A stretch of DNA of 46,580 bases from a virus. Position 1 is the stretch's first letter. Each line of letters begins with the position of its first letter. This document shows, piece after piece, positions 11,884 to 46,580 of the stretch. A program made the position numbers and the translations under genes. The stretch lies in the IMG/VR virus record IMGVR_UViG_3300031413_000013, positions 1 through 46,580 of that record; one strand, given 5' to 3'. Under the pieces are notes generated by a model. That model saw only the letters and a program-made list of their open reading frames with translations. It was not told where the DNA came from and did not search any database.

Positions 11884-12236
11884 GCGGGGCTGTCGAAGGG
11901 GTGGCGCTATCGCCTTGTCCGTTCTGTGGCTCATGTGATGTGGTGCTGATCCCTCAGACGGGCTCAGTCGAATGCATTGACTGCGGCGCGATCGGCCCTG
12001 GCACGCTTGGCGATGATTGTGCCGCGCTCTGGAACACCCGCACCACACCCCCAGCGCGGTCCTATGCGGATGCGATCGAGGACGCGGCGAAGGCCTGCGA
12101 GGACCAGCAGCAAGTGTTTCTGTCCCCGCAGTACGCCACAGGTCAACCGCTGTCATCATTTCACGAGCGTTTCGCGTGCGGGCAGTGTGCCGCCGCCATC
12201 CGCCTCTTGTCGCATTCCAGTAAAGGTGTAGAGTAA
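11880..12236 (+). CDS. Lar-family (restriction alleviation)-like protein, copy 1. Its 3' end has been replaced by the tnpB insertion.
   Basis: LSPCPFCGSCDVVLIPQTGSVECIDCGAIGP...ALWNTRT matches the Lar zinc-ribbon pattern CPFCG...C..CG...WNTR. Confidence 0.65.
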   Translation: MSGAVEGVALSPCPFCGSCDVVLIPQTGSVECIDCGAIGPGTLGDDCAALWNTRTTPPARSYADAIEDAAKACEDQQQVFLSPQYATGQPLSSFHERFACGQCAAAIRLLSHSSKGVE

Positions 12237-13341: not shown

Positions 13342-13357
13342 GGGAGCCTCGGCATGA
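12236..13357 (+). CDS. tnpB: TnpB RNA-guided endonuclease (OrfB_IS605 + Zn ribbon); catalytic residues intact.
   Basis: RuvC-I is SIGVDLGLKT, RuvC-II is LEVNEAYSTQTCSSCG, the zinc finger is CSSCG...CSDCG and RuvC-III is HDRDVNAARNILRVG. The protein is 373 aa. Confidence 0.9.
   Translation: MEMATQTITAKFRLRDKHATELNRQSRVVNFVWNYCNEVQKKAAQAGRKWLTAFELMRMTSGSSKELDVHCHTIQRVCSAHYDARRTHKLPWLRWRSRKSLGWVPFNNSYVHFDGECFVFRGVRYEAMHLRPFLKPGMRFGAGSFNADAKGNWYINLPVAVECADPCSGPSIGVDLGLKTLATLSDGASIVMPRFYRESEMALATAQRAKKTKRARAIQAKARNRRQDFQHKASKALCAKYGVIIVGDVSPSKLAKTSMAKSVYDAGWSGLKSMIRYKAIMHGGTYLEVNEAYSTQTCSSCGSLPASRPRGIAGLGMREWECSDCGTVHDRDVNAARNILRVGLDTLAEGAAARRGKPLIAEEQPILSQGASA
13150..13357 (+). ncRNA. Candidate omega-RNA (scaffold plus guide) for TnpB. 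Predicted only from position.
   Basis: In known TnpB systems the guide RNA overlaps the 3' end of tnpB and ends in flanking DNA. A local hairpin GGGG-AAA-CCCC lies at 13300-13310. No covariance evidence is available. Confidence 0.35.
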
Positions 13358-13533: not shown

Positions 13534-13885
13534 CTTCGACATCCCGCCGCCCTTCACTGTTCGCACCCTTGCCGATCGGTGGGGGTGCAGCGAAGGCGCG
13601 ATCCGTAAATTGATCGACACAGATGGCTTGCCGCATTTCAGGATCGGTGTCCTTATCAGGATCGCCGCGAGCGATATCCAGGAATACGAGCAATGCCAGA
13701 AGACCCCTACACCGTTCAAAAGCTGCGAGGCGGATTTGCCATCGTCCACCGTGAAGACGGAAAGCGACGACGGATCCAGCTCGAGGCGACGGATCGCCAA
13801 AGCGCCGAAGCGGAAGCGCGCCGCAAATGGGCAGCTAGTGACCAGTCGCCGTGGACTGTCTCTCGTGTCGTCGCACACTACCTAA
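13523..13885 (+). CDS. xis: Excisionase-family HTH protein. The ORF runs about 190 nt into int in another frame.
   Basis: FTVRTLADRWGCSEGAIRKLIDTDGLPHFRIGVLIRIAASDIQEYE is a typical excisionase/AlpA HTH_17 pattern located directly upstream of int. Confidence 0.65.
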   Translation: MASSFDIPPPFTVRTLADRWGCSEGAIRKLIDTDGLPHFRIGVLIRIAASDIQEYEQCQKTPTPFKSCEADLPSSTVKTESDDGSSSRRRIAKAPKRKRAANGQLVTSRRGLSLVSSHTT

Positions 13886-14709
13886 AGGCCAAGGAGGCGG
13901 AGGGGATCGCCACCCTCGACCGGCGCCGTGATGCGTGGAAGGCGATGCGGCCATTCTGGGAGCGAATCGATCCGCACATGATCGACCCCCCGATGTGTAA
14001 GGCGTATCGCGCTACCCGGCCTGTGTCCGATGCCACCGTGCGGCTTGAGTTGTCCTTGCTCTCGACTGCGCTGGGCATGGTCGCCAAGGACCGCAACATC
14101 CCCGAGATCACCAACAAGCCCGATATGTGGCTTCCCCCGGCAAGCGAGCGGCAGGAGCGGCACCTTACGGCCCGCCAGTTCAAGAAGCTCCAGGCGGGCG
14201 CTATAGCCCCCCACGCTTCGCTCTATATGGCCCTTGGTGTCTTCACCCTCGCACGCCCTAGCGCGCTGTTCGACCTTCGCTGGACGCAGGTCGACTTCAT
14301 CCGCAACCTTATCGACCTCAACCCGCCTGGCCGGCGTCAGACAGCGAAGAAGCGGCCGATCGTGCCAATGGGTCCGCTGTTGCGCGAGGCTATGGAAAAG
14401 GCCTTCCGCGCGCGCACCTGCGAATATGTCATCGAATCTGGCGGCAAGCCCATCGCCAGCATCAAAAAGGCGTTTCAGGCAGCGGGCAAAAGGAGCGGTG
14501 TCCACGCAACGCCCTATACGCTTCGCCATACTGGCGCCGTTTGGTCGGCTGAACAGGGCACACCGATGCCGGTATTAGCCCAGCTTATGGGCCACGATGA
14601 CGACCGGACCACGCAAAAGCATTACGCGAGGTTTTCGCCGGACTACCTTCGCGGGGCCAGCCAGAGTGTCGAGGATGCGTTCAATGAAAAAGTCCGAGGT
14701 TCACCGTGA
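13693..14709 (+). CDS. int: Tyrosine integrase.
   Basis: The catalytic pattern is present: ...LARPSAL (Arg)...YTLRHTGAVW (HxxR)...HDDDRTTQKHY (Tyr). The attP core lies 43 nt downstream. Confidence 0.9.
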   Translation: MPEDPYTVQKLRGGFAIVHREDGKRRRIQLEATDRQSAEAEARRKWAASDQSPWTVSRVVAHYLKAKEAEGIATLDRRRDAWKAMRPFWERIDPHMIDPPMCKAYRATRPVSDATVRLELSLLSTALGMVAKDRNIPEITNKPDMWLPPASERQERHLTARQFKKLQAGAIAPHASLYMALGVFTLARPSALFDLRWTQVDFIRNLIDLNPPGRRQTAKKRPIVPMGPLLREAMEKAFRARTCEYVIESGGKPIASIKKAFQAAGKRSGVHATPYTLRHTGAVWSAEQGTPMPVLAQLMGHDDDRTTQKHYARFSPDYLRGASQSVEDAFNEKVRGSP

Positions 14710-17102: not shown

Positions 17103-17389
17103 GGTCGTTGCTCCGTAACTGAGATCGGGTCGGCAGGGGTGCCGGTTGGTACAGCCGTTGATTGCTTGACGATGTCGGCATTGGCCTGGGCTAGATTGCG
17201 GCCGCTCGAGGTGCTGCCGAACTCGGACTGAACGACCGAGCCGCCCCAGCCGAACACGATGCCGAGCGCGAGTAGCAGGGCTTCGTTGTTACCGTCTGGC
17301 ACCTTGACGAAGAACAGCAGCAGTAGGCCGATGGCACTGAGCAGGATCGCGGACCACCCTACGATTGTGCGGAAGGTTCGGTCGGTCAT
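17099..17389 (-). CDS. Membrane protein in the lysis cassette (two predicted TM helices); spanin or holin accessory candidate.
   Basis: ...IVGWSAILLSAIGLLLLFFV...ALLLALGIVFGWGG... It lies directly downstream of the endolysin. Confidence 0.55.
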   Translation of the reverse strand: MTDRTFRTIVGWSAILLSAIGLLLLFFVKVPDGNNEALLLALGIVFGWGGSVVQSEFGSTSSGRNLAQANADIVKQSTAVPTGTPADPISVTEQRP

Positions 17390-17997
17390 GCCCAGCCCCC
17401 GTCGCGAAGCGCCCGCTCGAATGCCTGCGCGTAATCCTCGACCAGATCCGCCTTGTCGGTCCCGTTGATGATCCGGCGCGCGTTCATGTATTGCTGCCGT
17501 GTGGCCGTCCCAGACGCCGGGAGATAGTCGCTCAGCTTCTTCCCGCTGAACCAGCCGTAATCCATACCCTCGCGCATGATACGCGCTGCTAGGGGTGCCT
17601 GCATGGCGAGGTCAGGGCTGCCAACCAGATCAACGCCAAGCTTCGCGCCAGCCTTCACGTAATTGGCCTTCCACGTAAGCTGCACGTAGCCGCGGCCGAA
17701 GTAGCGCGCGCCGTCACCAGCGCAGGTGTTGCCGTTCGCGATGCAGAACTTTGGGCGATCCCCCGCGACATCGTACATGCGCGTGTAATAAGCAGGCCCG
17801 CCAAACTCCTCGACCGGCTGCATCCGCGTCGCCGTCTCGTGCCAGGCAGTAGCTAGCATGTAGGCGGCGTGGGACAGAGGGGCGCCCTTGCAAGCGTCCA
17901 GCAGCGTGTTGATGCCATTGACCTGCCCGACGCTGAGTTTGCCTAGCTGGGCGCGCACCGTGGCGTAGAACGCCGCTGCGTTGGTAAGCTTCGTCAT
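17386..17997 (-). CDS. Endolysin, glycoside hydrolase family 19-like.
   Basis: ...ATAWHETATRMQPVEEFGG...YFGRGYVQLTWKANY... resembles the GH19 catalytic core. The internal ATG at 17995-17997 forms an ATGA overlap. Confidence 0.75.
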   Translation of the reverse strand: MTKLTNAAAFYATVRAQLGKLSVGQVNGINTLLDACKGAPLSHAAYMLATAWHETATRMQPVEEFGGPAYYTRMYDVAGDRPKFCIANGNTCAGDGARYFGRGYVQLTWKANYVKAGAKLGVDLVGSPDLAMQAPLAARIMREGMDYGWFSGKKLSDYLPASGTATRQQYMNARRIINGTDKADLVEDYAQAFERALRDGGWA

Positions 17998-18311
17998 GCC
18001 TTGCCTCTCCCGGCCTTGTGGGCCTCCCAATATGCAACCTGCTGATCATTCGCCCGCTGGTGCCGCAGGTCGCGCCAGGTCCGCCCTCCGATGAACAGGA
18101 TGCAGCCGAAGGTCATCATCGTGGATGCCCAGCCTTCGAATGGCCCGTCGCGCTCCCAAATGACGCCGATGGTTAGGAAGCCGCACCCGCCGACGAGCCC
18201 GAGGCCTACGCGCTCGACCACGTTCAGCGTGGTGCGGAGCTGGGTCACCTTGTAGATAACAATCACCGTCAGCACGAAGCGGCCGAGGGAGTTGAGAATG
18301 TCGAAGATCAC
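17994..18311 (-). CDS. Membrane protein (holin/antiholin candidate).
   Basis: The GTG at 18309-18311 forms a GTGA overlap. Hydrophobic segments include FVLTVIVIYKV, GLGLVGGCGFLTIGVIW and TMMTFGCILFIGG. Confidence 0.55.
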   Translation of the reverse strand: MIFDILNSLGRFVLTVIVIYKVTQLRTTLNVVERVGLGLVGGCGFLTIGVIWERDGPFEGWASTMMTFGCILFIGGRTWRDLRHQRANDQQVAYWEAHKAGRGKA

Positions 18312-19313: not shown

Positions 19314-22094
19314 TCACAGTCGGCACATCGACCAAGCGAAAAGCATCTCCGCTTGCTGCGACCTGCCTAGAGCTGACGGATGCGTCGGGTCGGAGATGCT
19401 CACCGTTTCGACGCCGATTGAATCGACAGCGTCGGTAGAGGTGCTGAACACCGCCTTGGCGTCAGTGACCTGGAACAGCAGCCGCACGTAAAGCTTGGAG
19501 CTTTCGCGGCCGGCATATTCTGCCAGCAGCAGGCGCGCCATGGTGACCAAGTCGGTCCACACCGATTCCGTCGCCTGCCCCGGCACTGCTATCGCAACAT
19601 GCGTGTTGGGATACGCAGCGTTCCATGCGTCAGCCTGCTCGATGATCGCCGCGGCTGCCGTCTCTGGCGTGCCACCACCGCCCCAGAGATCGTTCATCCC
19701 CAAGCAGATCACCACCTGGTCCGGTGCCGTGCCGCTGAGAAAATTGGTGACATAGAATGTCGGGCTGTAGACCCCAGAGAAGTTACGGAACGGGTTATAG
19801 TGCCACCGAGGCCCGTACTGCCCGACGTTACCTAGAGCCTTATACTCCGTGACAGAGGCAGCTATCTGGGCAGTGACGGTGCCGGTGTATCCGGCGCCGC
19901 CATCCGTGATGGTGATAGCGCCGGGGACGCCGCCAGACACCACGATGCGACCGCGGGCGCGGCGCGAGCCGGCGAGATTGTCGCCCTGGTTCTGGAACAC
20001 CACGTCCCAGGTGCCGTTAGCGTAACCGGTCCCGCCCGATGCCGTGGCTGCGGTGACAGCCCCGCCGCTGCGCGTGACGTTGATCACCAAACCCGAACCG
20101 CCGTCCGGACGCAGCGAGAACACGTCGTAGATCATGCCGTAGCCTGGGTGGTTCGGTTTGGCGGCATTGGTGGTGTAATTGGTCGCCATCCAGTTCGGTC
20201 GGCCCTCAGCGAGCACACCGCTGCCGCCTTGGCTCGCCAGCGTTCCGACAAACACCGGCGACACACCTGCCGCTACCAGCTTGTCGCGCGTTGCCGTCGC
20301 CATGCCGTAATCCGTCAGGCTGTCGCCAATGAACAGTATGCGGGGGGAGCCCGTCTTAGCTGGCGCGGACGAATAGAAAGTGACGTTGCGACGCCGGAAC
20401 CCGCCTGTCTCGTCCGTGCCACGTCGTTCTGCAAAGATCTGCCCGGCGCCGCTGAAATCGGCCCCGTCAAGCCGCAGCATCGGCGTACACTCACGGCCAG
20501 CACGCGTGCCGTTTTGACCAATCGCGGTGATGCCCCATTCGGAATGCCCGCGCTCCAGCGTCATACCGTCGCCAAGCAGCTTCAACGGCCGGCCTTGGAT
20601 CAAGTCATAGGAGGACGAGGCGAGTAGCGTGATGCTGGCGCCGCTTGCATATGTGCCCCAGTTCGACCAGTCGACATCGAGCGGAGCCGCGTCAGCGAGG
20701 ATAAGCCCGAAACCGGAATAATATACCGTCTTGCCCGCGATCGGCTGCGTCAGCAGGATCAATTTGTCGATGTTGTCAGTGAGCGCCGTATACTGTCTGC
20801 GCAAAGTGATCCGCCGAATGTTCTCGGATACATCGGTCTGCGTAACGACGGTTATGCCATCGGTGCTGCTAATGCCTTGCGGCTGGCCTCCGTCGTCCTG
20901 GATGGTTGAAAGCAGGACATAAGCGCCAGAAAGCATACTCCACGCATCAGCCGGGGCCTTGCGGATTAGATAGCTCGCCGAGACCCAATCCCCGTTGCCA
21001 AATGACTGGTCGGGCGTCAGCGTGATTAGGAAGTACACTCCCTGGTCTGCCGACTCCACCTCGGCTTCATAATTGATGCCGAGGCTGTTCAGGTAGCTGT
21101 TAGCCGTCTCCACGATTTGCGGCGTTGGTATCCCTGGGAACCACGAACCTTGGCCAGAAGGCGCTCCAGCGGGCAGATTGCCACCGATCGGGAACGGCAC
21201 CAGCCCCACGGCTGGCGGGTTCTCCAGCGCGGCGATACGAGCCTCGATCGCGACGCGGGCGGCAGGATCATAATCTCGGTAGTCCAGATCCGGGCTGAAC
21301 TGCGGCGACGCGCCGATGCCAAGCGCGCTCACACTGATAGTTGACGCAGACGTGTTGGTAACCGTGACGAACGCATAGTCGAGACGGTTGCCGATTGCGA
21401 TATTCTCGAGTTGCCCACCGACGACATATCGACGCGTGTTCGCGTCGATGTTCTCGGTCTTGAGAAGCAAAGCCGGGTTGGAATCAATGAAGGCCTGCTG
21501 CCCCGCCCCACCGATCGGCACTGTGCCCATCGCGATAAATTCGGTCGAACCAGACTTTGCCGGGTAGGCCTGTCCCGCCTGCCGAGTAATGATGAGCGAC
21601 GTGATGATATTGTCGCCACGGATTGCGGGTTCGTCGAGCGATCCTGTTCGGAACGTGAATGTCTGGCCGGCTGCAAGCACAACCTTGCTCTTGACGCCGC
21701 GGGCGACCAGCAGAGGGTCGGATTCTTGCAGCGCAGGGATGATTGCGCCCGCAGGGGGGGTGGTTACGAACGAGGCCCCGTTCGTCAGGCCACCGTTAGG
21801 AAGATCGCCACCGATAGCAAAGGGCGTCATGCTCCCCTGGGCTTTTTCGGCCGCAATCACAGCCAAGGCGGCTTCGTCTCTTGCATCTTCCGCGGCAGCG
21901 AGTAGCGGCGCGATCAACGCCTCGGCAGCCGCGGGGTCGACGCCGGCAACAGCCGCAGCAGCGATAGCAGCCTCGATTGGAAGCGCTATTGCCCGGATCT
22001 CACTCTTTACCGGTTCATGCGCACCTGACGCGGGAACACCCATGACCGGGTTGTCGCGAAATGCCTGATTGAACTTTTCGCTGATCTCACCCAC
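19314..22094 (-). CDS. Tail fibre/spike protein with a C-terminal SGNH (GDSL) hydrolase domain (926 aa).
   Basis: Block I is ILFIGDSLTDYG, block III is ICLGMNDLWGG and block V is SDPTHPS. The GTG start has GGAGA upstream. Confidence 0.8.
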   Translation of the reverse strand: MGEISEKFNQAFRDNPVMGVPASGAHEPVKSEIRAIALPIEAAIAAAAVAGVDPAAAEALIAPLLAAAEDARDEAALAVIAAEKAQGSMTPFAIGGDLPNGGLTNGASFVTTPPAGAIIPALQESDPLLVARGVKSKVVLAAGQTFTFRTGSLDEPAIRGDNIITSLIITRQAGQAYPAKSGSTEFIAMGTVPIGGAGQQAFIDSNPALLLKTENIDANTRRYVVGGQLENIAIGNRLDYAFVTVTNTSASTISVSALGIGASPQFSPDLDYRDYDPAARVAIEARIAALENPPAVGLVPFPIGGNLPAGAPSGQGSWFPGIPTPQIVETANSYLNSLGINYEAEVESADQGVYFLITLTPDQSFGNGDWVSASYLIRKAPADAWSMLSGAYVLLSTIQDDGGQPQGISSTDGITVVTQTDVSENIRRITLRRQYTALTDNIDKLILLTQPIAGKTVYYSGFGLILADAAPLDVDWSNWGTYASGASITLLASSSYDLIQGRPLKLLGDGMTLERGHSEWGITAIGQNGTRAGRECTPMLRLDGADFSGAGQIFAERRGTDETGGFRRRNVTFYSSAPAKTGSPRILFIGDSLTDYGMATATRDKLVAAGVSPVFVGTLASQGGSGVLAEGRPNWMATNYTTNAAKPNHPGYGMIYDVFSLRPDGGSGLVINVTRSGGAVTAATASGGTGYANGTWDVVFQNQGDNLAGSRRARGRIVVSGGVPGAITITDGGAGYTGTVTAQIAASVTEYKALGNVGQYGPRWHYNPFRNFSGVYSPTFYVTNFLSGTAPDQVVICLGMNDLWGGGGTPETAAAAIIEQADAWNAAYPNTHVAIAVPGQATESVWTDLVTMARLLLAEYAGRESSKLYVRLLFQVTDAKAVFSTSTDAVDSIGVETVSISDPTHPSALGRSQQAEMLFAWSMCRL

Positions 22095-32207: not shown

Positions 32208-32540
32208 ATGCCTGATCCCGCCCCCATGGACCTCGAAAACATGCGGTCCCTTGGTATCCGGACCATAGATCTGATCTGTGGCTGTGGACGGCATAAGGAG
32301 GTCAACGTCGACCAGTTCGCCGGATCCGAGGCTGTGCCGTCGATGACCCGGTTCTTCCGGTGCGGGGAGTGCGGCGAGCGCCCGAAGACGGCGCGGCCTG
32401 GGCGGCTGCATCGGAGCCCGGCAGGATCAACGACGACGATCCGATCAATGAACCTGACCGAAGATCGCTACCTTCCGGGGACGAGGCGCTGCTCGACTAC
32501 TAGCGCCCCGCCATCATCTTCACGTAATCGGAAACCGTGA
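32208..32540 (+). CDS. Small Cys-rich (zinc-ribbon-like) protein on the opposite strand. The 3' extent is uncertain.
   Basis: MPDPAPMDLENMRSLGIRTIDLICGCGRHKEVNVDQFAGSEAVPSMTRFFRCGECGERPKTARP contains two Cys pairs. The low-complexity tail overlaps the GH5 3' end. Confidence 0.5.
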   Translation: MPDPAPMDLENMRSLGIRTIDLICGCGRHKEVNVDQFAGSEAVPSMTRFFRCGECGERPKTARPGRLHRSPAGSTTTIRSMNLTEDRYLPGTRRCSTTSAPPSSSRNRKP

Positions 32541-33771
32541 CCGAAGCGCGCGTGCCCTTCTTCGGCTCTAACTTGAAGATGTAAGACTCGGCCCACGCGC
32601 GACCGCCGCCCCAGACCGTGGTCCCGCGAATAACGTCACTATTCGCCTTGATGCTGGCCATAAAGTTCGGCCCGACGACGTTGCACGAGGTGAACAGGCC
32701 CCGGTTGTTGCCGAGGCCAAATTCGGTCACATACGCCTGCAGGCCGCGCTTGCGCAGACCGTCCGCGAAGACTCCTAAGCCGCCATCACCCGAGTTCGTG
32801 TTGCAGCCGGGTTTGAAGCCGCTGCCGCCCTTATCGAGGTAACGGTGACCGCTGAAATACGTTTTGTTCAGCGGGTCATTGATACCGCCCACCCGGTCCA
32901 ACGCGTCCCCCATGCCCTCGGCTGGGAACCGCGCACCCTTGAACTTCGTAAAACGAGAGGTGGAACTGTAACCGGGGCTGCCAAACAAGATCGGGTTCGT
33001 AACGCCATTGGCTCGGAACAGGACCACTGTATCGCGAGTGTCCTGCGCCGACACCATCCATGGATTGCTGCCGGCCGGATAGCCCTTCACCGGCTCGTTC
33101 GCCAATTCGATCAGCGTGTCGGCGCTGAAGGACGGCAGGATCGGGCGCCAGAACGCCCAGGCATCGGCTGCGGAGTGGCGGGTGTAGTCGTGTCGATCGA
33201 GGATGACCTTCGCACCCTTGCTTTGCGCGTAGGTTACGATCTCCGCCACTACAGCGAGCTTGGCCGGGTCCGTAAGGTGCGTGTCCAGCACCGGGATACG
33301 CAGCAGCCGATAGCCCGTAGCGATATACCAGTCGACGTCCTCACGGTTGGGGCAGAGTGCCACAGTGGTGGCGAACTCGCAGCCCGATAGGTTGGCGCCA
33401 AATAGCTGGTGCGTTGCGGCTGGCGCAGGTGATGGTGTGGCAGTCGAAGCGCAAGCTGGTGCGTCGACGGGGGCGTAGACGTAGCCCTTCCCTGCCACCT
33501 GCCCGACAAAACGGAGCTTTGTCGCGCCAACCGTCTCAAAGTCGTTTCCGGCCGAGGCGGAGCGGCTGCGATCGTTCCACGCAAGCCAGCCCTTCGCGCG
33601 CGAGCCGTCCTTCATCAGTTCACGGCCCATCGACTTCTTGAGCACCAGCGTGTCGCCCGCGCAGACGGTGTATTGGGCGGGCGGGTTAGCGCCCGTCACG
33701 ATATGTTCGGCCTGCGCGATCACCGGGGAGGCCATCATCATGCAGACTGCAGCGAAGATACTCCGGATCAT
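32500..33771 (-). CDS. Glycoside hydrolase family 5-like enzyme with an N-terminal Sec signal peptide.
   Basis: The signal peptide is MIRSIFAAVCMMMASPVIAQA. LIELANEPV is an acid/base NEP motif and AYVTEFG a nucleophile TEFG motif. Confidence 0.75.
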   Translation of the reverse strand: MIRSIFAAVCMMMASPVIAQAEHIVTGANPPAQYTVCAGDTLVLKKSMGRELMKDGSRAKGWLAWNDRSRSASAGNDFETVGATKLRFVGQVAGKGYVYAPVDAPACASTATPSPAPAATHQLFGANLSGCEFATTVALCPNREDVDWYIATGYRLLRIPVLDTHLTDPAKLAVVAEIVTYAQSKGAKVILDRHDYTRHSAADAWAFWRPILPSFSADTLIELANEPVKGYPAGSNPWMVSAQDTRDTVVLFRANGVTNPILFGSPGYSSTSRFTKFKGARFPAEGMGDALDRVGGINDPLNKTYFSGHRYLDKGGSGFKPGCNTNSGDGGLGVFADGLRKRGLQAYVTEFGLGNNRGLFTSCNVVGPNFMASIKANSDVIRGTTVWGGGRAWAESYIFKLEPKKGTRASVTVSDYVKMMAGR

Positions 33772-33794: not shown

Positions 33795-36311
33795 TTACGC
33801 CGCTGCCATAAGTGGTGCAGCTTCAGCCGCCATCGCGACATGTCCGCCAGTCGACGGATGCGTTTCATCACTGGCAAATCCGTTTGCGGTCCCGTTGACC
33901 TTCCATTTGAAAGGGTCGGTGCCGCGAATACTATTGAACGGGATCACAAAATCGCGCGTGATCGTGATCCCGTTTACCGAGTCCACACCAGCGATGATGT
34001 TCTTGTTAACGATGTCTGGCTTGCCGCCAGAGACCCATCCCGTGTTGTAGGTCTGATTTTCCTCCGTAACCCATTGATCAGTTGATGCAGCTCGCGGCAG
34101 ATACAACGGCATACCAATTTTGCAGCCCGGCGATCGAGTGCGCATCTGCGCCATGATCCCGTTTAGTCTATTTTCTAGAGCAGCATAATCAAAGCTTGCC
34201 GACACCGCTTGACCAAAATCATTCGTCCCATAGAAAAGGATGAAGCGGCTTGCGAATTGATACCAATAGTCAACGTTAGGCGCATTGACCCCTGACGTGC
34301 TTTCGGTCGCTGTGACGGCCATGTTCATTGACGCAACACCATTCAGACGGCATGCGCGAATGAACCATCCAAGTTTGTTGCCGCCGTCGTTGACGTTCAT
34401 CGTAATGCTGTCGCCACGGCTAAGCCATGCGATCGCGGTTGCAGGATTGACCGGCTCAATTAGACAGATCGGCACCATTCCGCCTACGCGGACATCGCCT
34501 GCTGTCCCGGTCAAGGTATAAGCGCCGGTGCCAGTCGTGTTGCCGAGTGTCGTAACCGAAGGATCATAGAAAGTGGTCTGCTGACCAGCGTATTCAGTCC
34601 GCTGTCGCTCCGTCACCGGGATCGACTGCGCCGTCGTATCGAGTATCACATCAGTGCCTGTCTCGAATACGGTTCCGGCTGGGAACTCGGTCAGCCCGAA
34701 GTCAGACGGGACGAGCACTTGGCATCGGATATCGTTATCGCCCGGCTGTAGTGTCAAGCTGCCCGCATTCCCGGCAGACGGCCACGCGACCATTTTGACG
34801 ATACCGTTACAAACGATCTTTGCGGTACGGATTGGAACAGCGTTCGGAAGGGCCAGATAGCTACCGCCATTCGAAATGCGCCAGCCGTTCCACGAGAAAA
34901 CTACGCGCTTAGCTGCGTAAACAAGTGTATGCCGCCAATAGTCGACGCGACCGACCCGCCCACGGCTCTCGACGTTATTGATAACTCGGTTGTTATCGGT
35001 TCCGTAGGTGAACGCCGATGCCGTCGCCGCGGCAACGGTCAGAACACCGTTCGCCCCGGTCGCTCCGGTAGCTGCGACCGAGAAGTTGATCGTGCCTGCC
35101 GATAGCGCCGACATGCCGACGACGACCTTCCAGCCTGCCGACGCGCTGCCTGCGATCACCAGGCGGCCGTCGTTCGGTGTCACCGACGGCGACACGCCCG
35201 CTGGGACGTTCGAGATGTTCGATACCAAGGTGCCACCCGCCGCATTCGATGCGATCGAGGGCGATGTTGGTGAGAGGGCAAGCGTCGGCGTCACAGTTGC
35301 CGCCGATACGGTTACTGCAGGCGACGTCGACGTGATGACCGCGCCGTTCGTTCCGGTCGCGGTGTTCTCGAGCGTCAGCGAACCTGCGGCGTTCGGGGTG
35401 ACCGTGGTGCCGGTGCCGATCGCCGTGGTGCCCAACAGCCAGCGACGGCCGGTGATCGTCCCATTCGTCACCGTGCCGTCAGTCGCGGTGAAGGTGGTGC
35501 CGACCGGGGCGCTGGTCGGAGAGATCGAGGGCTGCGAAAGCGTAGGCGCAGGCACGGTAGCAGCGGCTACGGTGATGTTAGACCCGCTGGTCGTCTCGCC
35601 GCCTGGGCCCGTTGCGACCGTCTCGTAGCGATAACTGCCAGCCGCGGTAGGCGTATACGTTGCCGAGCTGGTCAGCAGCGTCGAACCGAGCAGCCAGCGG
35701 CGCGTGTAGCTCGCAGCATTGGTCGCAACGCCGTCGATCCCGGTCAGCAGTTCACCAACTTGGGGGGTGCCGTCGCTGGCAATCGACGAGGGGGTGGTAA
35801 AGACCGGCGCCGGGATGGGGACTGATGGGCCGTCATACAGAATAACCGTCTGCGTGATCTGGGGAGCCCCGCCGAGGGTCGCGTTCGCCTTGATCGAGAC
35901 GCGCACAGCCGTCAGCGCGATCGAGCCACCGGCAAGCGAGGGAACCACCGCGGACGAATTGATGACGCTCAGCGTGCCCGTGCTGATGATGCTACGGCCA
36001 TAGAACAGTCGCTGTGCCAGCTCGACGCGAAGGCCCGGCTTGCTCAGCATAGCCTCCGACCAGCGCCCGTCGAACGCCCAGCGAAAATACTCGCCGGTCG
36101 TGTCAGAAAGCCGCTCGCCCTCGTACTGCGAAGGGGCGCCAGCGTAATCGGTGACGAGTGCCCGCGTGCCTGCCGTGTAGAACGTCAGAACCATGGCCTG
36201 ATCATCGAGGTCAGTGGCACGGCCCGCGCTGTCGAGCAGCTGGACCTCGAGAACAAAGGGCTCACCAGCGGCCAAAGTGTAGCTAGCGAGGTCTTTTCCG
36301 ACCAACAACAT
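33795..36311 (-). CDS. Tail fibre protein with tandem Ig-like repeats and a C-terminal SGNH hydrolase domain (838 aa).
   Basis: Block I is WLSRGDSITMN, block III is ILFYGTNDFG and block V is SDETHPSTGGH. There are two repeats of about 80 aa (...TRRWLLGSTLL.../...GRRWLLGTTAI...). Confidence 0.8.
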   Translation of the reverse strand: MLLVGKDLASYTLAAGEPFVLEVQLLDSAGRATDLDDQAMVLTFYTAGTRALVTDYAGAPSQYEGERLSDTTGEYFRWAFDGRWSEAMLSKPGLRVELAQRLFYGRSIISTGTLSVINSSAVVPSLAGGSIALTAVRVSIKANATLGGAPQITQTVILYDGPSVPIPAPVFTTPSSIASDGTPQVGELLTGIDGVATNAASYTRRWLLGSTLLTSSATYTPTAAGSYRYETVATGPGGETTSGSNITVAAATVPAPTLSQPSISPTSAPVGTTFTATDGTVTNGTITGRRWLLGTTAIGTGTTVTPNAAGSLTLENTATGTNGAVITSTSPAVTVSAATVTPTLALSPTSPSIASNAAGGTLVSNISNVPAGVSPSVTPNDGRLVIAGSASAGWKVVVGMSALSAGTINFSVAATGATGANGVLTVAAATASAFTYGTDNNRVINNVESRGRVGRVDYWRHTLVYAAKRVVFSWNGWRISNGGSYLALPNAVPIRTAKIVCNGIVKMVAWPSAGNAGSLTLQPGDNDIRCQVLVPSDFGLTEFPAGTVFETGTDVILDTTAQSIPVTERQRTEYAGQQTTFYDPSVTTLGNTTGTGAYTLTGTAGDVRVGGMVPICLIEPVNPATAIAWLSRGDSITMNVNDGGNKLGWFIRACRLNGVASMNMAVTATESTSGVNAPNVDYWYQFASRFILFYGTNDFGQAVSASFDYAALENRLNGIMAQMRTRSPGCKIGMPLYLPRAASTDQWVTEENQTYNTGWVSGGKPDIVNKNIIAGVDSVNGITITRDFVIPFNSIRGTDPFKWKVNGTANGFASDETHPSTGGHVAMAAEAAPLMAAA

Positions 36312-38831: not shown

Positions 38832-39959
38832 TCAAGCGGCCTTGCCGGCAGTGCGCCAGGCGTTGTGATCGTTCGCGTCCTTGAGGGCGGTCGCCTCGCG
38901 CGTGACGGCATCGCCCAGGACGACCGGTGCGCCGATCGGAACGACGGTGTTGCGCGCGTCGCCGACCTTGACGTCGTTCGTGAACGCGACGAATGCGCCC
39001 TCGATTGCCGCGTCAGCCATGTCCTTGGCTGCGTCGCCGAGCTTAGCCATCACAGCCTCCTTGCGGATCTCGACGTCGGTCTTGCCGTCCACGACGATCG
39101 CCGGGTGCAGAGCCTTGGCCTTGCCGATGACGAGCGCACGGGCGTCGGCAAGCTGCTGGAGCTTGGCCGGGGTCACTTCGGCATCCTTGACCTGCTGGGT
39201 CAGGGCAACGATCGCGCCGTCGCGTGCTTCGATGGTCGTCTTGGCGGTCGCGAGATCGGCGGTGAGCGTGCCCACCTTCGTCTGTGCGTCCGTCAGGGTC
39301 GTGTTCAGGGCGCCGACCGCGAGAGCAACAGCAGCGCCGTCGCTCAGGTCAACGTCCTTGGCGTCGCCGATGGTGATCTTCATGCTTTTAGGCTCCTGGT
39401 GGTCACGAAGGTGTGCGGGGCGCTCGTCAACGATGCGCAGCTCGGCGCCTCCACGGGCAGTGCCGCAAAGCGCGAGATGGTTGATCCGGATGTTCGCCAT
39501 GCTGCCGTCGTATTCGGCGTCGCCGAACTTGCCGGGGGTCATGTCGATATCCGCGGAATAGCCGAGGCTGAACTCTTGATGCGTGCGCTGGGCGGCTTCG
39601 ACACCGCGAGCGTCCATGACCATCACGGGGATACGGAGGAAATCGCCGTCCCGCATGATCTCGCCGCCCGTGTCGCCTACCGCAAGCTGCTTCCAGTTTG
39701 CGGCGGTGACATCCTGTGCGGGATGGTTGATCGTGATCGGGCGATGCGCGGCGCTGGCGATTGCGTCCTTGGCGAACACTGCGGCCTCGGGCCGGAAGAT
39801 CCGGTAAGGCTGGCCATCGGCCTTCGGTGCCATGCCAATCTCGGCCGGCATGTAGTCCTGGACGTTGTTCGCACGTGCGACACGCGCCGTAGCGACAAGG
39901 TGCCCTTCCCGCGTGATGCGGGCGGGTCCGTCGATGAGGGCGCGGTCTTGGAACAGCAT
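38832..39959 (-). CDS. Prohead scaffold/protease-like protein (DUF2213-like).
   Basis: The N-terminal domain MLFQDRALIDGPARITREGHLVATARVARANNVQDY is followed by an Ala-rich coiled-coil C-terminal half typical of scaffolds. Confidence 0.6.
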   Translation of the reverse strand: MLFQDRALIDGPARITREGHLVATARVARANNVQDYMPAEIGMAPKADGQPYRIFRPEAAVFAKDAIASAAHRPITINHPAQDVTAANWKQLAVGDTGGEIMRDGDFLRIPVMVMDARGVEAAQRTHQEFSLGYSADIDMTPGKFGDAEYDGSMANIRINHLALCGTARGGAELRIVDERPAHLRDHQEPKSMKITIGDAKDVDLSDGAAVALAVGALNTTLTDAQTKVGTLTADLATAKTTIEARDGAIVALTQQVKDAEVTPAKLQQLADARALVIGKAKALHPAIVVDGKTDVEIRKEAVMAKLGDAAKDMADAAIEGAFVAFTNDVKVGDARNTVVPIGAPVVLGDAVTREATALKDANDHNAWRTAGKAA

Positions 39960-40030: not shown

Positions 40031-40201
40031 ATGTCCATAAAAGCCGGTGACGTAGTAGTTCTTAAATCGGGCAGCCGCCCCATGACCGTTATGTGGGTAA
40101 ATCGTGACGGCACTACCGGCGTGGTATGGGAAGACAAAGACGGCGCGCATCACACCGCCAACTATAATGAGGCCTCACTGATGACCGAGGCTACCGGCTA
40201 A
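40031..40201 (+). CDS. DUF2158 (YodC-like) small protein on the opposite strand (56 aa; below the ORF-track cutoff).
   Basis: Manual translation gives MSIKAGDVVVLKSGSRPMTVMWVNRDGTTGVVWEDKDGAHHTANYNEASLMTEATG*. It carries the GDVV.LKSG.P.MTV signature and sits in a locally lower-GC segment. Confidence 0.6.
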   Translation: MSIKAGDVVVLKSGSRPMTVMWVNRDGTTGVVWEDKDGAHHTANYNEASLMTEATG

Positions 40202-41043
40202 TCGAAGCTGATGACCGATCGGGCGCGACAACCGCAATACGGTTCCTGACCGGGCCGCGTCGGAGGCACTGTCTCAACGGTCTTGCCGTCGATCACGCCG
40301 CCAATGTCCGCCTTGTCGTCGCTGTAGATATGCCCGTTGCGTGCGACATGGGCAGCGCGCGGGTGTGCCTTCTGGCTATGGATCCACATCCACGTTGCAA
40401 TCCCAGCAGCGCGGCGCCGTTCGTCAGCCAGCGACGACGTGATCTTGCTGAGCTGATCCGAGGCCACGCGCAAAGACCGATCGCGCGCCATGCCCGTGCT
40501 CTCGCGGATCTGCTTCGCAACATCGCGGGCCGGCGTGCGGTTCGTGAGGCCTGAGAACACCGCGGAGCTGATGCGCTGGCGTGCCTGGTCACCGATATCG
40601 CGGACCAAGGCCACGTTCCAGTTGAGCGTCGTCTCGAGCGTCTGGGCCACGTCCTCCGGCCCGAGCATCGTTTGCAGGTCGACGTTGGTCGCGGCCAGCA
40701 CGGCGCCACGCCAAGCATCACGGGAACGCCGCTCAACTCGAATTGTCCAGTCGCGCATCGCCGGCCGCAGCAGCAGCACCAGCGAGGCAAGTTCCTGCCC
40801 CATGCGCTCGAATATGTTGGTGAGATCGTCGCCGCTGTCGGTGATCAGGGCGGATAGTGAGCGGGCGTACTCGGCGTTGGCCAACGCGGCGTAGCGGTCA
40901 ATCAGCGCTAGGACGGGACGGTACGAGCTCTGAAAAAGATCTGTCGCGAGCATTGCCGGTAGCGGAGTATCGCGGATCACCACTACACGCTTTCGGCGTC
41001 CGGGGTTGGCGCGCATTGCCATCGCGCGGAGGTCGAACCGCAC
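40198..41043 (-). CDS. Head morphogenesis protein (SPP1 gp7 / Mu F-like).
   Basis: The C-terminal ...WMWIHSQKAHPRAAHVARNGHIYS...EPYCGCRA... is typical of the Mu F family. It lies directly downstream of the portal gene. Confidence 0.7.
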   Translation of the reverse strand: MRFDLRAMAMRANPGRRKRVVVIRDTPLPAMLATDLFQSSYRPVLALIDRYAALANAEYARSLSALITDSGDDLTNIFERMGQELASLVLLLRPAMRDWTIRVERRSRDAWRGAVLAATNVDLQTMLGPEDVAQTLETTLNWNVALVRDIGDQARQRISSAVFSGLTNRTPARDVAKQIRESTGMARDRSLRVASDQLSKITSSLADERRRAAGIATWMWIHSQKAHPRAAHVARNGHIYSDDKADIGGVIDGKTVETVPPTRPGQEPYCGCRARSVISFD

Positions 41044-41046
41044 CGA

Positions 41047-43017
41047 TCACGCCTCGCGCGTCGTGTCGATGACTTCGAAGATCTCCGGCCCCAGCACAAT
41101 CTTGCCGCGGTACGGCTCGACGTTGGTCAGGTCGACCGGCTCGCCAGTGAGCGAGATATGCGGCGTGAAGTCAGGGAAGTCCCACGATGCGCCAGCCTCC
41201 CGCATTTCACGGTTGCGCCAGGCTAGATCGGACGACGCGAACATCAGCACAGCGGTACGATTGCCCAGCGGCTCGACCACTCGGGGACCGCCTGCGGTGA
41301 TCACCATCTCGCCAGTGCCCTTGCCGTTGAAGTCGCGGAAGTCCGAGCCCATCGCGATCCAGTCGACAGGCGTCGTGCTGTAGGTGATCGTGGTGTGCAG
41401 ATCATCCTGCAGATCGGGCAGCCCCTGAGACTTTGCCCACGCCTTGAGATCCGCGACGTTGACGACCTTGCGGCTCACATAGAGCGGCCGTGGCGTCGCA
41501 TCGTTGAGAAGCGCGTCATTGGCAGCACGACGCCGGAGAACGCTTCCATCGCTCCCGGCCCCGGCTAGAACAGGATCACCTCCTTCCGATTGGATGACTG
41601 ACGGATCTGGTGCAGCGGGATCGGCGGGCGCGGACTGGCCAATGCCATACCGTTCCTCCTCGCTCATATCCCCGAGCTTCTGAATGGCGCCGGGCATCCA
41701 CCCGTTCGTCTCGACGACACCCTGTACGCCAGCATTGAACGCGAGCTCTGGCATCACGCCCATGTCGCGGATCTTGCCGAGCGCGGTCACGGTCTTGTCG
41801 AACCGTTCGGCCTCGTCCTTCGGGTTGGCCTTCGAGAGCGGCGAGAAAACCCATGTGTTGTCCGTGTCGTTCGCGACGCCTGCGGATGGCAGCAGCACCT
41901 CGTCCAGCTTCTCGAGGCATGGACGTACCTCAAGCTCCTGCGAGGCATGCGTAGCGTCGTGATAGTTCGCGAGATCGCTGTCACCCGTGGCATTCATGCC
42001 GCCCGGCGATCGACCCATAAGGCGCGTGAACGGGATATCCGCAACGGCCGACACCCGCTGGTCAAGCGAGTCCTGCATGGCCGGAATGCCGGTGAAGTTG
42101 ACCTGATAGTCGTCGATCTTCTCGCCGCCCTCGGTGCCACCAGTCCCATTGCTGGTCGGCAAGCTGTAGAGCGTGGCGTTCAGCGTGTTCTCGCCCTGTG
42201 CAATCAGCGCGACGCGAGCGTTCAGCGTGGCCTGGTCGAACTCGGTGATGTTCGAGATGCCGAACCGGAGCAGCTTGGCCTTCTTGATCAGCTCGGCGAA
42301 CCACTTGGCGCCGTTGTCGCTGCGGGCGACCTCGGTCATCACGCGCAGGATGCGGGCGCGGCCCCAATAGCGGTCTTCCGTCGATACCGTGCCCGACATG
42401 ACCGGGTAAGGCTCGCCACGGAATGCGATGACGCGGCTGGGGTGGATGCGGACCGATCCACCCTTGCTCTCGACTTTGAAGAACTCAGGCTCGCCATAGG
42501 TCGGGCTAGTCAGCACCTCGTTGATGTTCTCAAGCTGCAACTGGCGACGGCTGACGACGTTGACCGCCTCCAAACCGCCCTCGCTGGGAATGGGTGCGGG
42601 TGATGCGGGATCACCGGGCAGCGCGAGGATGAGGGCGCCACCACCAAGGCCGCGCAGCACTTCCGCCGCCTTCACCTTGGATCTGATCGCCAGCCGCTTT
42701 TCCTCGGCCTCGATCTTCTGCTGGTCTTCATCGGTTGCCTGCCAGTCGCGCCAAGCCCGCGTGCGATCAGCAGCGGGGATGTCGATGGTCTTTTGAAGGA
42801 GGCCCGACCCGAGGTATGCGGCGAACGCGAAATCGAGGCTGAACATGCCCCCTAGCGCCGACTGCTGATAACCCTGTGCGAAGCCCTGGACCGAAGCGAG
42901 CGCGCTCCCGATACCTGCATCATTGGCCGCGATACGAACCGGTGAGGACTGAGGGCGCATCGGAACGCCTGCGCTATCGAGGATGCCGGCCATGCTCACC
43001 GGGTTATGGCTGGTCAT
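41047..43017 (-). CDS. Portal protein fused to a C-terminal 2H-phosphoesterase (LigT/Acb1-like) domain (656 aa).
   Basis: Position between the TerL and head-morphogenesis genes. The last roughly 175 aa contain DLHTTITYS (DNA about 41381-41410) and TPHISLTG (about 41146-41165), which are the paired H-x-T/S-x motifs. Confidence 0.7.
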   Translation of the reverse strand: MTSHNPVSMAGILDSAGVPMRPQSSPVRIAANDAGIGSALASVQGFAQGYQQSALGGMFSLDFAFAAYLGSGLLQKTIDIPAADRTRAWRDWQATDEDQQKIEAEEKRLAIRSKVKAAEVLRGLGGGALILALPGDPASPAPIPSEGGLEAVNVVSRRQLQLENINEVLTSPTYGEPEFFKVESKGGSVRIHPSRVIAFRGEPYPVMSGTVSTEDRYWGRARILRVMTEVARSDNGAKWFAELIKKAKLLRFGISNITEFDQATLNARVALIAQGENTLNATLYSLPTSNGTGGTEGGEKIDDYQVNFTGIPAMQDSLDQRVSAVADIPFTRLMGRSPGGMNATGDSDLANYHDATHASQELEVRPCLEKLDEVLLPSAGVANDTDNTWVFSPLSKANPKDEAERFDKTVTALGKIRDMGVMPELAFNAGVQGVVETNGWMPGAIQKLGDMSEEERYGIGQSAPADPAAPDPSVIQSEGGDPVLAGAGSDGSVLRRRAANDALLNDATPRPLYVSRKVVNVADLKAWAKSQGLPDLQDDLHTTITYSTTPVDWIAMGSDFRDFNGKGTGEMVITAGGPRVVEPLGNRTAVLMFASSDLAWRNREMREAGASWDFPDFTPHISLTGEPVDLTNVEPYRGKIVLGPEIFEVIDTTREA

Positions 43018-43218: not shown

Positions 43219-44478
43219 TCACCCGAGCAGCTTCCGCATGTCGAACTTGGCGCGACGCGTGGACTCCAGCGCGTACCGGATCGCGTCAATCATGTGGTTG
43301 TCCTTATCCGCTAACACCGGGATTACCTGACCTGTCAGCGTGTCCACCTTCCACGAATACAAGCTCAGCTCGTCAACGACGTGCGTGCAGCGCGGATGCA
43401 CAACGATGTCGTAGGACTTCATGAACTCGATACCGTCCTCAACTGAGCCCGAACCCTTCTTGGCGCTGCCGATCGTGAACCCCTGCCGGTTCATGTAGCT
43501 GATCGTCTCAGGGCGCGCGCTGTCCGCGGTGATCGGCCATTTGCGGGACAGTGGCACGCGATCGAACAGGGCTGGCGTGTTGTCGATCTCACAACCAACT
43601 GCATACGCCTCGTAGTCGATGAACAGCGTTCGGCCATCTGGGTCGGCGACTGCCTTGCCCTCGACCATGCGGCCCAGGAACATGCGGACGAGCACGGACG
43701 GATCGACCGAGAAGCCCCAATCCGCGCCGAAATAGAACCGTGCATCGTCAGGCGTCTCGAAGCGGTCAGTGGTCCAGTTCTTGAACACCCTCGCCTCGCT
43801 GTTACGCTGGTACTCGCCAAGCCAGATGTGCGCGTATTTGTCGGGGTCGCGCTTCTGGTCCCACTCCATTTCCTGCCGCAGCTCGGACGGGAACCATGGG
43901 TTCTCGGTGTAATTGACGCGTCGCACGATCGAGCCAGGCGGAGGGGTGCCGCCACGAAACATGACGTCGATCGGATCTTTCGCCTCGCCCGGGTTCCAAT
44001 CCCACCAGATCTCAGAGCCGGGTGATCGCACAGTCGGGGTCAGCACCTGAATACTGTTCTGGCTGACCGCGCGCGCCTCGCTGACATAGGCGATGTCGAT
44101 GCCCTCCATCGACTTGATGCTGTCGACGTTGGTGCGGAGGCCGGCAAACTTGAACGTCGTGCCGTTACGGCCACGAATCTCAGCCTTCAAGCTTTCGAAG
44201 AACCCGTCGCCGTTCGTCGGACCGAAGCCCATCGCCGGGATTTTGTCTTCAAGCAACTGCTTCACCGATGCGTCGATCGACCGCTGTATCTCACGGGCGC
44301 ACAGGATGCGCGTAGGACGCTCAACGCCGCGCAGGACCAACCCTGAGCCGAAGCTATGCGACTTTGCGCTCCCACGGCCTCCCCAGGCGGCTCTGTGGCG
44401 CACTGGCAGGCCATCGTCGGCTACCCGTGCGGTCAGGAGCTCGCAAAAGACGTCGGGGAGCTCAACCCTCGCTAGCAT
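43219..44478 (-). CDS. Terminase large subunit (PBSX-type).
   Basis: There is a Walker A-like motif AAWGGRGSAKSHS. The 419-aa ORF follows the small terminase gene and has a C-terminal nuclease region. Confidence 0.85.
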   Translation of the reverse strand: MLARVELPDVFCELLTARVADDGLPVRHRAAWGGRGSAKSHSFGSGLVLRGVERPTRILCAREIQRSIDASVKQLLEDKIPAMGFGPTNGDGFFESLKAEIRGRNGTTFKFAGLRTNVDSIKSMEGIDIAYVSEARAVSQNSIQVLTPTVRSPGSEIWWDWNPGEAKDPIDVMFRGGTPPPGSIVRRVNYTENPWFPSELRQEMEWDQKRDPDKYAHIWLGEYQRNSEARVFKNWTTDRFETPDDARFYFGADWGFSVDPSVLVRMFLGRMVEGKAVADPDGRTLFIDYEAYAVGCEIDNTPALFDRVPLSRKWPITADSARPETISYMNRQGFTIGSAKKGSGSVEDGIEFMKSYDIVVHPRCTHVVDELSLYSWKVDTLTGQVIPVLADKDNHMIDAIRYALESTRRAKFDMRKLLG

Positions 44479-46334: not shown

Positions 46335-46580
46335 TCAGAACGGCACATCGTCGTCGAGGTCGTCACCGAACCCCCCGGTTTGAGCACCACCCGAAGCGCG
46401 CTGATTTCCGCCGTTTTTGGCATCATTACCGGTGTTGCCGGCAGCGCCCCCGCTCGGGCCGTCGAGCATCGTCAGCACGCTGTTGAAGCCCTGCAGCACG
46501 ATCTCGGTCGAATACTTGTCCTGGCCCTGCGCGTCCTGCCATTTGCGGGTCTGGAGCGCGCCCTCGATATAGACCTTCGA
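46335..46580 (-). CDS. ssb: SSB C-terminal part: Gly-rich linker and acidic tip ...[12 protein letters not shown].
   Basis: Reverse translation ends [21 protein letters not shown], with the stop at 46335-46337. This is the canonical SSB C-terminal tip motif. Confidence 0.9.
46466..46580. repeat. Terminal overlap copy 2, identical to 1-115.
   Basis: Same 115-nt string as the window start. Confidence 0.95.

Follow-up and report, generated by a model that had tools for sequence, protein, structure and literature searches.

In a 46,580-nucleotide stretch of viral DNA (IMG/VR record IMGVR_UViG_3300031413_000013, positions 1 to 46,580; hereafter the window), one gene encodes a 656-residue portal protein that continues, past the conserved motif RRAAND, into an exchangeable C-terminal cargo cassette; in this phage the cassette is a single Acb1 domain, attached through a disordered linker about 45 residues long (Table 1). 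Profile matches, structure prediction and conservation across the family all uphold the original prediction, made from the sequence alone, of a portal with a C-terminal 2H phosphoesterase domain of the LigT or Acb1 kind. We lean towards an account in which the cargo is encapsidated with the portal and degrades the signals of CBASS, the antiphage signalling system based on cyclic oligonucleotides, and consider that account, taken as a whole, fairly probable.

The region in question, residues 480-656 with the stop codon, is translated from 41047-41580. It matches the Pfam family PF23474, 'Anti-CBASS protein Acb1', with E = 5.5e-30. The score is 104.4 bits when the whole protein is used and 107.8 bits with only the domain, the gathering score being 27. 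For LigT_PEase (PF02834), no Pfam match to the 656-residue protein was obtained at E ≤ 1, and a weak overlapping LigT match appeared in only a few relatives. Comparison of the last 197 residues with the sequences of the PDB gave residues 463-610 of 8hds_A, the portal of phage Pam3 (E = 2.6e-28), and Acb1 of Erwinia phage FBB1 (7t26, E = 1.7e-8); both histidine motifs are aligned in the sequence matches to these two proteins. By tblastn against phage genomes, the domain directly matched gene 57B of T4-type phages (Acj61, VR7 and many T4-like phages of Klebsiella and Escherichia). PHROG 755, which bears the old label of T4 57B relatives, 'RNA ligase', matches residues 521-626.

A domain model built with AlphaFold2 on 24 sequences (mean predicted local distance difference test score, pLDDT, of 83) shows the bilobed alpha/beta fold of 2H proteins. 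Its best PDB matches in Foldseek were the FBB1 Acb1 structures 7t26 and 7t27 (E = 1.9e-8, target-normalised template modelling (TM) score 0.70, 30% identity), followed by the phosphodiesterase of Burkholderia phage BCSR5 (14% identity), Escherichia coli LigT, Usb1 and others at 10-18%. All 46 PDB matches at E < 0.3 were 2H proteins, including, besides those just named, CPDase, the central domain of AKAP18, viral phosphodiesterases, CNPase, ASCC1 and YjcG. The best matches in BFVD were phage proteins named Acb1 in UniProt, one of them 1,134 residues long. Because the Pfam score, the tblastn matches to 57B and the best Foldseek and BFVD matches all point to Acb1, the domain is assigned, by profile and predicted fold, to the Acb1 sub-family and not to LigT, a choice that the original prediction had left undecided. 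The LigT/2'-5' RNA ligase-like proteins (PF02834; E. coli LigT, 5ldi) share the superfamily fold and the two H-x-T/S motifs (Foldseek E ~1e-4) and act on RNA 2',3'-cyclic phosphate ends; membership of this group was rejected on the missing Pfam match, the structural identity of only 12-16% and the lower TM-scores. As for the motifs from which the 2H fold had been predicted, DLHTTITYS and TPHISLTG are both present, but they are separated by 79 residues and not by about 75. Taken alone, the pair is weak evidence for the fold, since the 656-residue protein contains four instances of H-x-[ST]-x, and it is the profile match that is decisive.

The remainder of the protein is a genuine dodecameric portal of the Pam3/E217 type. 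It has both a portal profile (PF06381, of the DUF1073/HI1409 type) and a portal fold, and phrog_146 ('portal protein') matches at E = 3.4e-83 over a span that includes both the portal and the Acb1 parts. In the full-length AlphaFold2 model, the portal core and the Acb1 domain are each predicted with confidence, and a segment of low pLDDT lies between them. The best PDB match of this model in Foldseek is the Pam3 portal, 8hds_A (E = 3.8e-19), and the portals of E217, T1, FCWL1 and Pa193 come next. The gene is placed between those of the large terminase subunit (TerL) and the MuF protein.

The boundary between core and cargo is sharp. Across 200 fused homologues the linker is rich in Asp, Glu, Ala, Gly and Pro, with no positional conservation before the DAxPRxLYVxR motif that opens the Acb1 domain, and in the window its GC content at third codon positions (GC3) is 0.49, as against 0.80 elsewhere in the gene. 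No variation is seen at A498, A499, N500 and D501 in either the long or the short forms of the portal; the short forms end 3-15 residues later, and the DNA similarity between the two forms stops exactly after the AAND codons. Cargo-less siblings with cores 81-90% identical to that of the window are 500-516 residues long; among them, P0004, P0006 and P0008 (cores 84-90% identical, 504-516 residues) have no Acb1. Measured against these siblings, the extension amounts to ~140-156 residues, so that the excess of 170-200 residues claimed for the protein was an overestimate. Long forms with 88%-identical cores have Acb1 parts that are only 49-54% identical, and in the comparison with the closest relative (L006) the synonymous divergence (dS) is 0.61 in the Acb1 part (41059-41487) and 0.31 in the core. 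Because dS in the Acb1 part is twice that of the core, the sequences suggest that the cassette is exchanged by recombination and has a history separate from that of the core. In yet other relatives, ADP-ribosyltransferase, zeta-toxin or nuclease domains have been added where the cassette joins the portal core.

A profile search with the Acb1 domain over the representatives of 50%-identity clusters showed how widely the domain is spread: 2,989 representatives carry it at E ≤ 0.001 and 1,103 at E ≤ 1e-30. Among the 150 best hits, 146 could be classified, and 122 of these have the portal-core plus Acb1 layout; 25 of the 122 extend for more than 80 further residues. Domains added to portal-Acb1 chains include ADP-ribosyltransferase (7 of 41), ART, zeta toxin, PBECR3 nuclease and FAD oxidoreductase. 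Two of the longer chains are P0224 (portal, FAD/NAD oxidoreductase and Acb1; 1,469 residues) and P0176 (portal, a region of ~340 residues, Acb1 and zeta toxin; 1,172 residues). In Pfam scans of atypical members, the portals fused to Acb1 included those of two further families, PF06074 (Mu type) and PF04860; the domain was also located at the N-terminus of the DUF2213 head protease/scaffold (P0280, P0232) and, in some members, adjoining S78-type proteases; no Acb1 fusion to a capsid, tail or terminase protein was seen in this non-systematic sample. The full 656-residue protein is covered to at least 80% by 32 phage records. Cultured carriers include Pam3, Pseudomonas phiPSA1, MR15, the psage phages, RHEph04-like rhizobiophages, Sinorhizobium phage HMSP1-Susan, Aminobacter phage Erebus and Synechococcus phages.

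The fusion might in principle be an artefact, in which a portal gene and a stand-alone Acb1 gene were joined by a frameshift or in a chimeric contig, and some database entries are indeed Acb1-only open reading frames (ORFs) of 145-260 residues; most of these come from contigs of just 1-2 kb and have the appearance of fragments. However, the identical 656-residue protein is encoded on four contigs that stem from two or more independent datasets, GC3 hardly differs between the two folded parts of the gene (0.80 in the portal core and 0.82 in the Acb1 part), the layout recurs in the cluster representatives as described above, and the same architecture is found in cultured phages (Pam3, phiPSA1, RHEph04-like and Synechococcus phages) as well as in Sphingomonas genomes. 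An assembly or sequencing error can therefore be dismissed for practical purposes, and the possibility of two separate ORFs, on which the prediction might have failed, falls with it. Concerning the other end of the gene, several close homologues begin at the equivalent of M9 (MAGILDS...; window 42993-43017, minus strand); because of this, translation may begin eight codons downstream of 43017 and not at the ATG annotated there.

Residues of the active site were located by alignment with T4 Acb1 (57B, from NC_000866), with the roles given by Hobbs et al. (2022; PMC9117128), and are included in Table 1. The two HxS/T motifs occur at the correct spacing in 142 of 146 of the best cluster representatives. 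Relative to a 94%-identical relative, the ratio of nonsynonymous to synonymous substitution (dN/dS) is 0.17 for the Acb1 part and 0.055 for the portal core, indicating purifying selection on a domain that evolves faster than the core. From these sequence features and the model, the Acb1 domain is very likely to be an active 2H phosphodiesterase. A catalytically dead appendage that retains the 2H fold, and that might serve on the portal crown as, for instance, a headful sensor or a plug in contact with DNA, would suit the location of the domain at the portal end that faces the packaged DNA, and close relatives do function without the domain. On the other hand, such an appendage would not be expected to keep the catalytic and pocket residues in 58-60 of 60 homologues, the motif pair in nearly all representatives and the low dN/dS, and the presence of the same domain on unrelated carriers and beside toxin domains fits a cargo rather than a part of the portal. 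This alternative is very improbable.

Table 1. Features of the portal-Acb1 gene and of the genes discussed with it; positions are those of the window, and residue numbers are those of the 656-residue protein.
Feature	Position	Strand	Residues	Remarks
Portal-Acb1 fusion gene	41047..43017	-	656 aa	Continuous ORF; PF06381 and PF23474 on one polypeptide; stop codon 41047-41049
Portal core	41638..43017	-	1-460	PF06381 Phage_portal_3 matches aa 66-412 (41782-42822), E = 1.5e-79
Disordered Ala/Pro/Gly/Asp-rich linker	41509..41637	-	461-503	pLDDT < 50 at aa 462-466 and 468-503; ends in RRRAAND
AAGGAGGTGATCC	41573..41585	-	Linker codons 478-482	13-nt perfect Shine-Dalgarno-like complement of the 16S rRNA 3' end
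RRRAAND	41515..41535	-	495-501	Last conserved portal-core motif; cassette junction
Acb1-family 2H phosphodiesterase domain	41059..41487	-	511-653 (Pfam match)	Conserved start DAxPRxLYVxR at aa 506-516
First catalytic motif, H-T-T-I	41386..41397	-	H541, T543	T4 Acb1 H44/T46; H in 58/60 and T in 60/60 fused homologues
Second catalytic motif, H-I-S-L	41149..41160	-	H620, S622	T4 Acb1 H113/T115; H in 59/60 and S/T in 60/60 fused homologues
Equivalent of T4 Y12 (base stacking)			Y513	Invariant in 60-sequence alignment
Equivalent of T4 F107 (base stacking)			F614	Aromatic kept in the 656-aa protein
Equivalent of T4 E138 (pocket)			E645	Invariant
Equivalent of T4 E141 (contacts adenine N6)			E648	Glu in 56/60 fused homologues
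Position of T4 W74 (base stacking)			E582	Invariant Glu in clade-specific GGPRxxE motif; indel in nearby alignment
Position of T4 W147 (C-terminal lid)			Absent	Protein ends ...FEVIDTTREA; Trp in 78/137 representatives
MuF-like minor head protein gene	40198..41043	-		PF04233; phrog_324 head morphogenesis; directly downstream of portal-Acb1
DUF2158 gene	40031-40201	+	56 aa	Between MuF and head-protease genes
DUF2213 head maturation protease/scaffold	38832..39959	-		PF09979, E = 1.7e-44; phrog_530, E = 1.3e-74
Large terminase gene	43219-44478			Terminase_3
Lar-like restriction-alleviation protein	11880-12236	+		phrog_599
TnpB-type gene	12236-13357	+		OrfB_IS605 and Cas12f1-like TNB domain
Tyrosine integrase	13693-14709	+		phrog_1
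Esterase-, GH5- and GH19-like genes	19314-22094, 32500-33771, 33795-36311, 17386-18030	-		See text

The proposed activity follows from that of the free-standing enzymes. T4 Acb1 has a broad specificity for adenine-containing cyclic di- and trinucleotides (PMC9117128). By analogy, the portal-borne enzyme would hydrolyse adenine-containing cyclic di- and trinucleotide signals of the CBASS type, such as 3'3'-cGAMP and cAAA, by a metal-independent 2H mechanism that proceeds through a 2',3'-cyclic phosphate intermediate, as known for T4 and FBB1 Acb1, and cyclic-oligonucleotide defence signals are reasonably likely to be its substrates. Since the crown of the portal points into the capsid, a virion would take up as many as 12 copies of the enzyme, and physical encapsidation of the domain is likely. 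Two modes of action, which do not exclude each other, can be envisaged. Newly made portal-Acb1 could act late in the infected cell, when head proteins trigger CBASS; if freed by the head protease or by some other event, the pre-made enzyme would also enter the next host together with the DNA. For any such release of cargo, the DUF2213 protease is a candidate enzyme. The domain may stay attached to the 12 portal subunits once the virion is mature and act at or just after ejection, while its actual ejection into the host is more open to doubt than its encapsidation and is regarded as somewhat improbable. The carriers found, namely portals (PF06381, PF04860 and PF06074), the DUF2213 head protease/scaffold and S78 proteases, to which the literature adds MuF, are procapsid-internal, and the co-fused domains are classic injected effectors; for these two reasons, encapsidation for the benefit of the next host is the most economical rationale for the fusion.

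Several points weigh against this account. No biochemical or virion data and no experiments on any portal-fused Acb1 were found in the literature searched, which includes Hobbs et al. (2022), EVADES and a survey, guided by structure, of phage 'sponge' proteins that bind immune signals, and portal fusions are unmentioned in Hobbs et al. (PMC9117128). In the virion structure of Pam3 (8hds), the only one for a homologous fusion, the model covers 442 of 621 residues and does not include the Acb1 domain; the domain model from the window does not match 8hds, although the sequences align at the E-value given above. Given this absence, the Pam3 domain may be either flexibly tethered or removed by cleavage, and the Pam3 papers contain no peptide-level virion mass-spectrometry coverage of the Acb1 region. 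No conserved protease or cleavage motif was found in the linker of the 200 fused homologues, which shows a compositional bias only. At ejection the portal ring stays with the capsid and does not leave with the DNA, so that delivery would call for a release step; twelve molecules per cell are, moreover, a small dose. Finally, two of the four stacking residues of T4 Acb1, W74 and the lid residue W147, appear not to be conserved in this protein, and the substrate range may for that reason differ from that of T4 Acb1.

Some of these points would be explained if the enzyme worked only in the producing cell. The fusion would then serve to couple Acb1 synthesis to late head-gene expression, at a time when CBASS is triggered by capsid, protease or portal proteins; portal-Acb1, either free or in the course of assembly, would break down the signal in the cytoplasm, and the copies in the virion would be inert and undelivered. 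A portal that remains with the capsid, a linker that lacks a conserved cleavage motif and a domain that is missing from the Pam3 virion model are all in keeping with this, as is the activation of CBASS by phage head-assembly proteins and proteases, which two papers report (10.1101/2023.05.21.541620; PMC12991175). Co-expression alone, however, leaves unexplained the procapsid-internal bias of the fusion partners in the non-systematic sample. ADP-ribosyltransferase, zeta toxin and nuclease domains occupy the same site, and effectors of this sort belong to the classic injected proteins; MuF toxins and T4 Alt are packaged in the head and injected, with T4 Alt as the classic case. Restriction of the enzyme to the producing cell is accordingly judged rather unlikely.

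A second alternative accepts an active 2H enzyme but assigns it a substrate other than a CBASS signal, such as RNA 2',3'-cyclic phosphate ends (in a LigT-like repair of damage by anticodon nucleases), the cyclic oligoadenylates of type III CRISPR systems, 2'-5'-linked nucleotides or some further signal. The 'RNA ligase' label of PHROG 755 speaks for it, and so does the presence of LigT, Usb1, the central domain of AKAP18 and 2',5'-phosphodiesterases of viruses among the structural neighbours, as do the apparently missing equivalents of W74 and W147 and the invariant GGPRxxE and DAxPR motifs that the clade has as its own. Iyer et al. (2022) list CRISPR and cyclic-mononucleotide systems beside SMODS/CBASS as possible targets. 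Nevertheless, the domain is closer to characterised Acb1 (30% identity) than to LigT (14%) and has no Pfam LigT match, the adenine-specifying Glu and two stacking aromatics are conserved, and T4 Acb1 is itself already broad. A substrate outside CBASS is unlikely on these grounds, and a CBASS signal remains the preferred candidate.

With T4 57B and FBB1 Acb1 the protein shares the PF23474 family, the predicted fold, the HxT/HxT(S) tetrad and the equivalents of Y12, F107, E138 and E141. Those enzymes are free-standing and of ~150 residues, whereas the domain in the window is, according to its sequence, the C-terminal part of a structural protein; it further differs from T4 Acb1 in the Glu of GGPRxxE that aligns with W74, the lack of a lid Trp and the conserved DAxPR before the first strand. 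The Pam3 portal, gp3 (8hds; Yang et al., 2023, PMC9942802), has the same two-domain architecture with an Acb1 part ~45% identical in the HMMER alignment, but is without the RRAAND motif, and the two phages have in common the head-gene order TerL, portal, MuF, DUF2213, cement and major capsid protein. The portals of phiPSA1, RHEph04-like phages, HMSP1-Susan and Synechococcus phages are also of this architecture, within the same gene order. The polyvalent or polymorphic effector fusions of the literature, proposed to be packaged in heads, in which MuF or a portal is joined to 2H, ART or toxin domains (PMC9503650), share the arrangement of a procapsid-internal carrier, a linker and a C-terminal effector, and the protein described here likewise has a disordered linker, a junction after AAND and alternative effectors at the same site. 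Unlike MuF or the internal proteins of T4, however, the portal forms a structural ring that is fixed in the capsid and remains there. Among eukaryotic viruses, the penguinpox cGAMP phosphodiesterase (9ciw/9bkq) and the 2',5'-phosphodiesterases of rotavirus (VP3) and coronavirus (ns2) are 2H enzymes that destroy nucleotide immune messengers. They are weaker structural neighbours (E of 4e-3 to 0.16), and their substrates, 2'3'-cGAMP and 2'-5' oligoadenylate, differ. Rotavirus VP3 is also a virion-associated multidomain protein.

The linker gene segment holds a further element, AAGGAGGTGATCC, which is the sole match of at least 10 nt to the anti-16S sequence in the window on either strand. IMG/VR and related contigs contain 32 portal genes with GGAGGTGAT at the equivalent place, ~18-25 codons before AAND; the portals they encode are with and without Acb1 and range down to 38% protein identity. 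Equivalent Shine-Dalgarno-like sites were recorded at L001, L006-L010, L013-L044 and L064-L077. In ~400 kb of these loci, 32 copies of GGAGGTGAT are on the gene strand and a single copy is on the other. Because two of the 32 genes (L008 and L017) hold it in another reading frame, where it encodes E-V-I instead of G-G-D, the element appears to be conserved at the nucleotide level. In the window it is spelt GAA GGA GGT GAT, four consecutive A/T-ending codons in a gene with a GC3 of 0.80; under the codon usage of the phage, the probability that EGGD is spelt in this way is ~0.001. More distant Acb1-carrying portals (~35% identity) are without the element and cargo-less portals keep it, which marks it as a feature of the portal clade and not of the cargo.

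Several functions of this element were considered. Internal initiation is unlikely, as no canonical start codon was found near it at a workable spacing; a conserved ATG lies ~28-33 nt downstream and is out of frame or absent in many loci. No slippery heptamer of the type X XXY YYZ was seen by eye in its vicinity, and no conserved RNA structure was found at the element. A role as a pac site is also unlikely, because relatives with different terminase families keep it. The element may instead exert translational control at the boundary between core and cargo, as a ribosome pause site or as a ribosome-binding 'standby/stabiliser' site. It could make elongation pause once the crown has left the ribosome, or bind 30S subunits and so protect the mRNA of the downstream head genes; these ideas derive from the concepts of Shine-Dalgarno (SD) pausing and STAB-SD, respectively.

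The gene order around MuF matches that of Pam3 and of cargo-less relatives; MuF is the gene next to the portal in the window and in L001, and L007 has one ORF of 66 residues between the two. In the gap between MuF and the head protease, the window carries a DUF2158 gene on the opposite strand, which is also called in L002 and L006, while the same gap holds a gene of 411 residues without a Pfam match in L001 and four small ORFs in L007. It appears to be a hotspot of the head module at which accessory genes (morons) are inserted. Directly upstream of the portal, mosaicism is evident from the pairing of similar portals with different terminase types: portals that are 83-90% identical are accompanied by a Terminase_3 large terminase in the window and by a Terminase_6C protein in L001, and L007 has a Terminase_6N/Terminase_3 gene of 482 residues, with a Lar gene between terminase and portal.

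Other genes of the window bear on the life style of the phage. Positions 1-115 are identical to 46466-46580, so that the contig closes into a circle and represents a complete phage genome of ~46.47 kb, which comes from a metagenome (ENA ERZ27247402, contig k141_1039737, 46,606 bp). The Lar-like restriction-alleviation protein is a second anti-defence gene product, the TnpB-type gene marks an IS605-family element, and the tyrosine integrase belongs to the lysogeny module of a temperate phage. Two large proteins of 926 and 838 residues show weak, sub-threshold matches to GDSL/SGNH esterases, and a GH5 cellulase-like protein and a GH19 chitinase-like protein, the latter a likely endolysin, are also encoded. 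The sequences suggest that these esterase- and glycosidase-like products are host-recognition proteins that deacetylate or degrade polysaccharides. Prophages of Sphingomonas, Novosphingobium and Sphingobium are the closest relatives at the genome level, and the host of the phage is for this reason probably a sphingomonad.

The architecture itself has been catalogued before. Pfam annotation already lists PF06381 together with PF23474 for most homologues, and Iyer et al. (2022; PMC9503650, section 3.4.5) list 2H-portal fusions and give the packaged-and-injected rationale in one sentence. With architecture and rationale both in print, the novelty is low, and the finding is a correct independent re-discovery. 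The literature search found no paper on the BCSR5 phosphodiesterase, nor on the cleavage of Mu gpH. At NCBI, several of these portals bear the name 'anti-CBASS protein Acb1 family protein', which hides their identity as portals; portals of ~600-670 residues in this family should be read as portal plus Acb1. A bolder proposal would make the portal end after RRAAND a general dock for exchangeable cargo, stocking every capsid with as many as 12 copies of an anti-signalling enzyme or, in relatives, with ART, zeta-toxin or nuclease effectors in its place or besides it; the cargo would be freed during head maturation, reach the next host along with the DNA and destroy cyclic-nucleotide immune signals before phage genes are expressed. 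We put this forward tentatively and regard it, in full, as rather unlikely. Because the large family includes cultured phages, the delivery hypothesis is directly testable. If it were true, the portal would be a delivery vehicle, a role that we have not seen demonstrated for a portal, and the biology of injected effectors would extend from MuF and internal proteins to the portal. Phages would then bring an anti-CBASS enzyme ready-made into the cell, and the argument from timing for signal-based defences would change.

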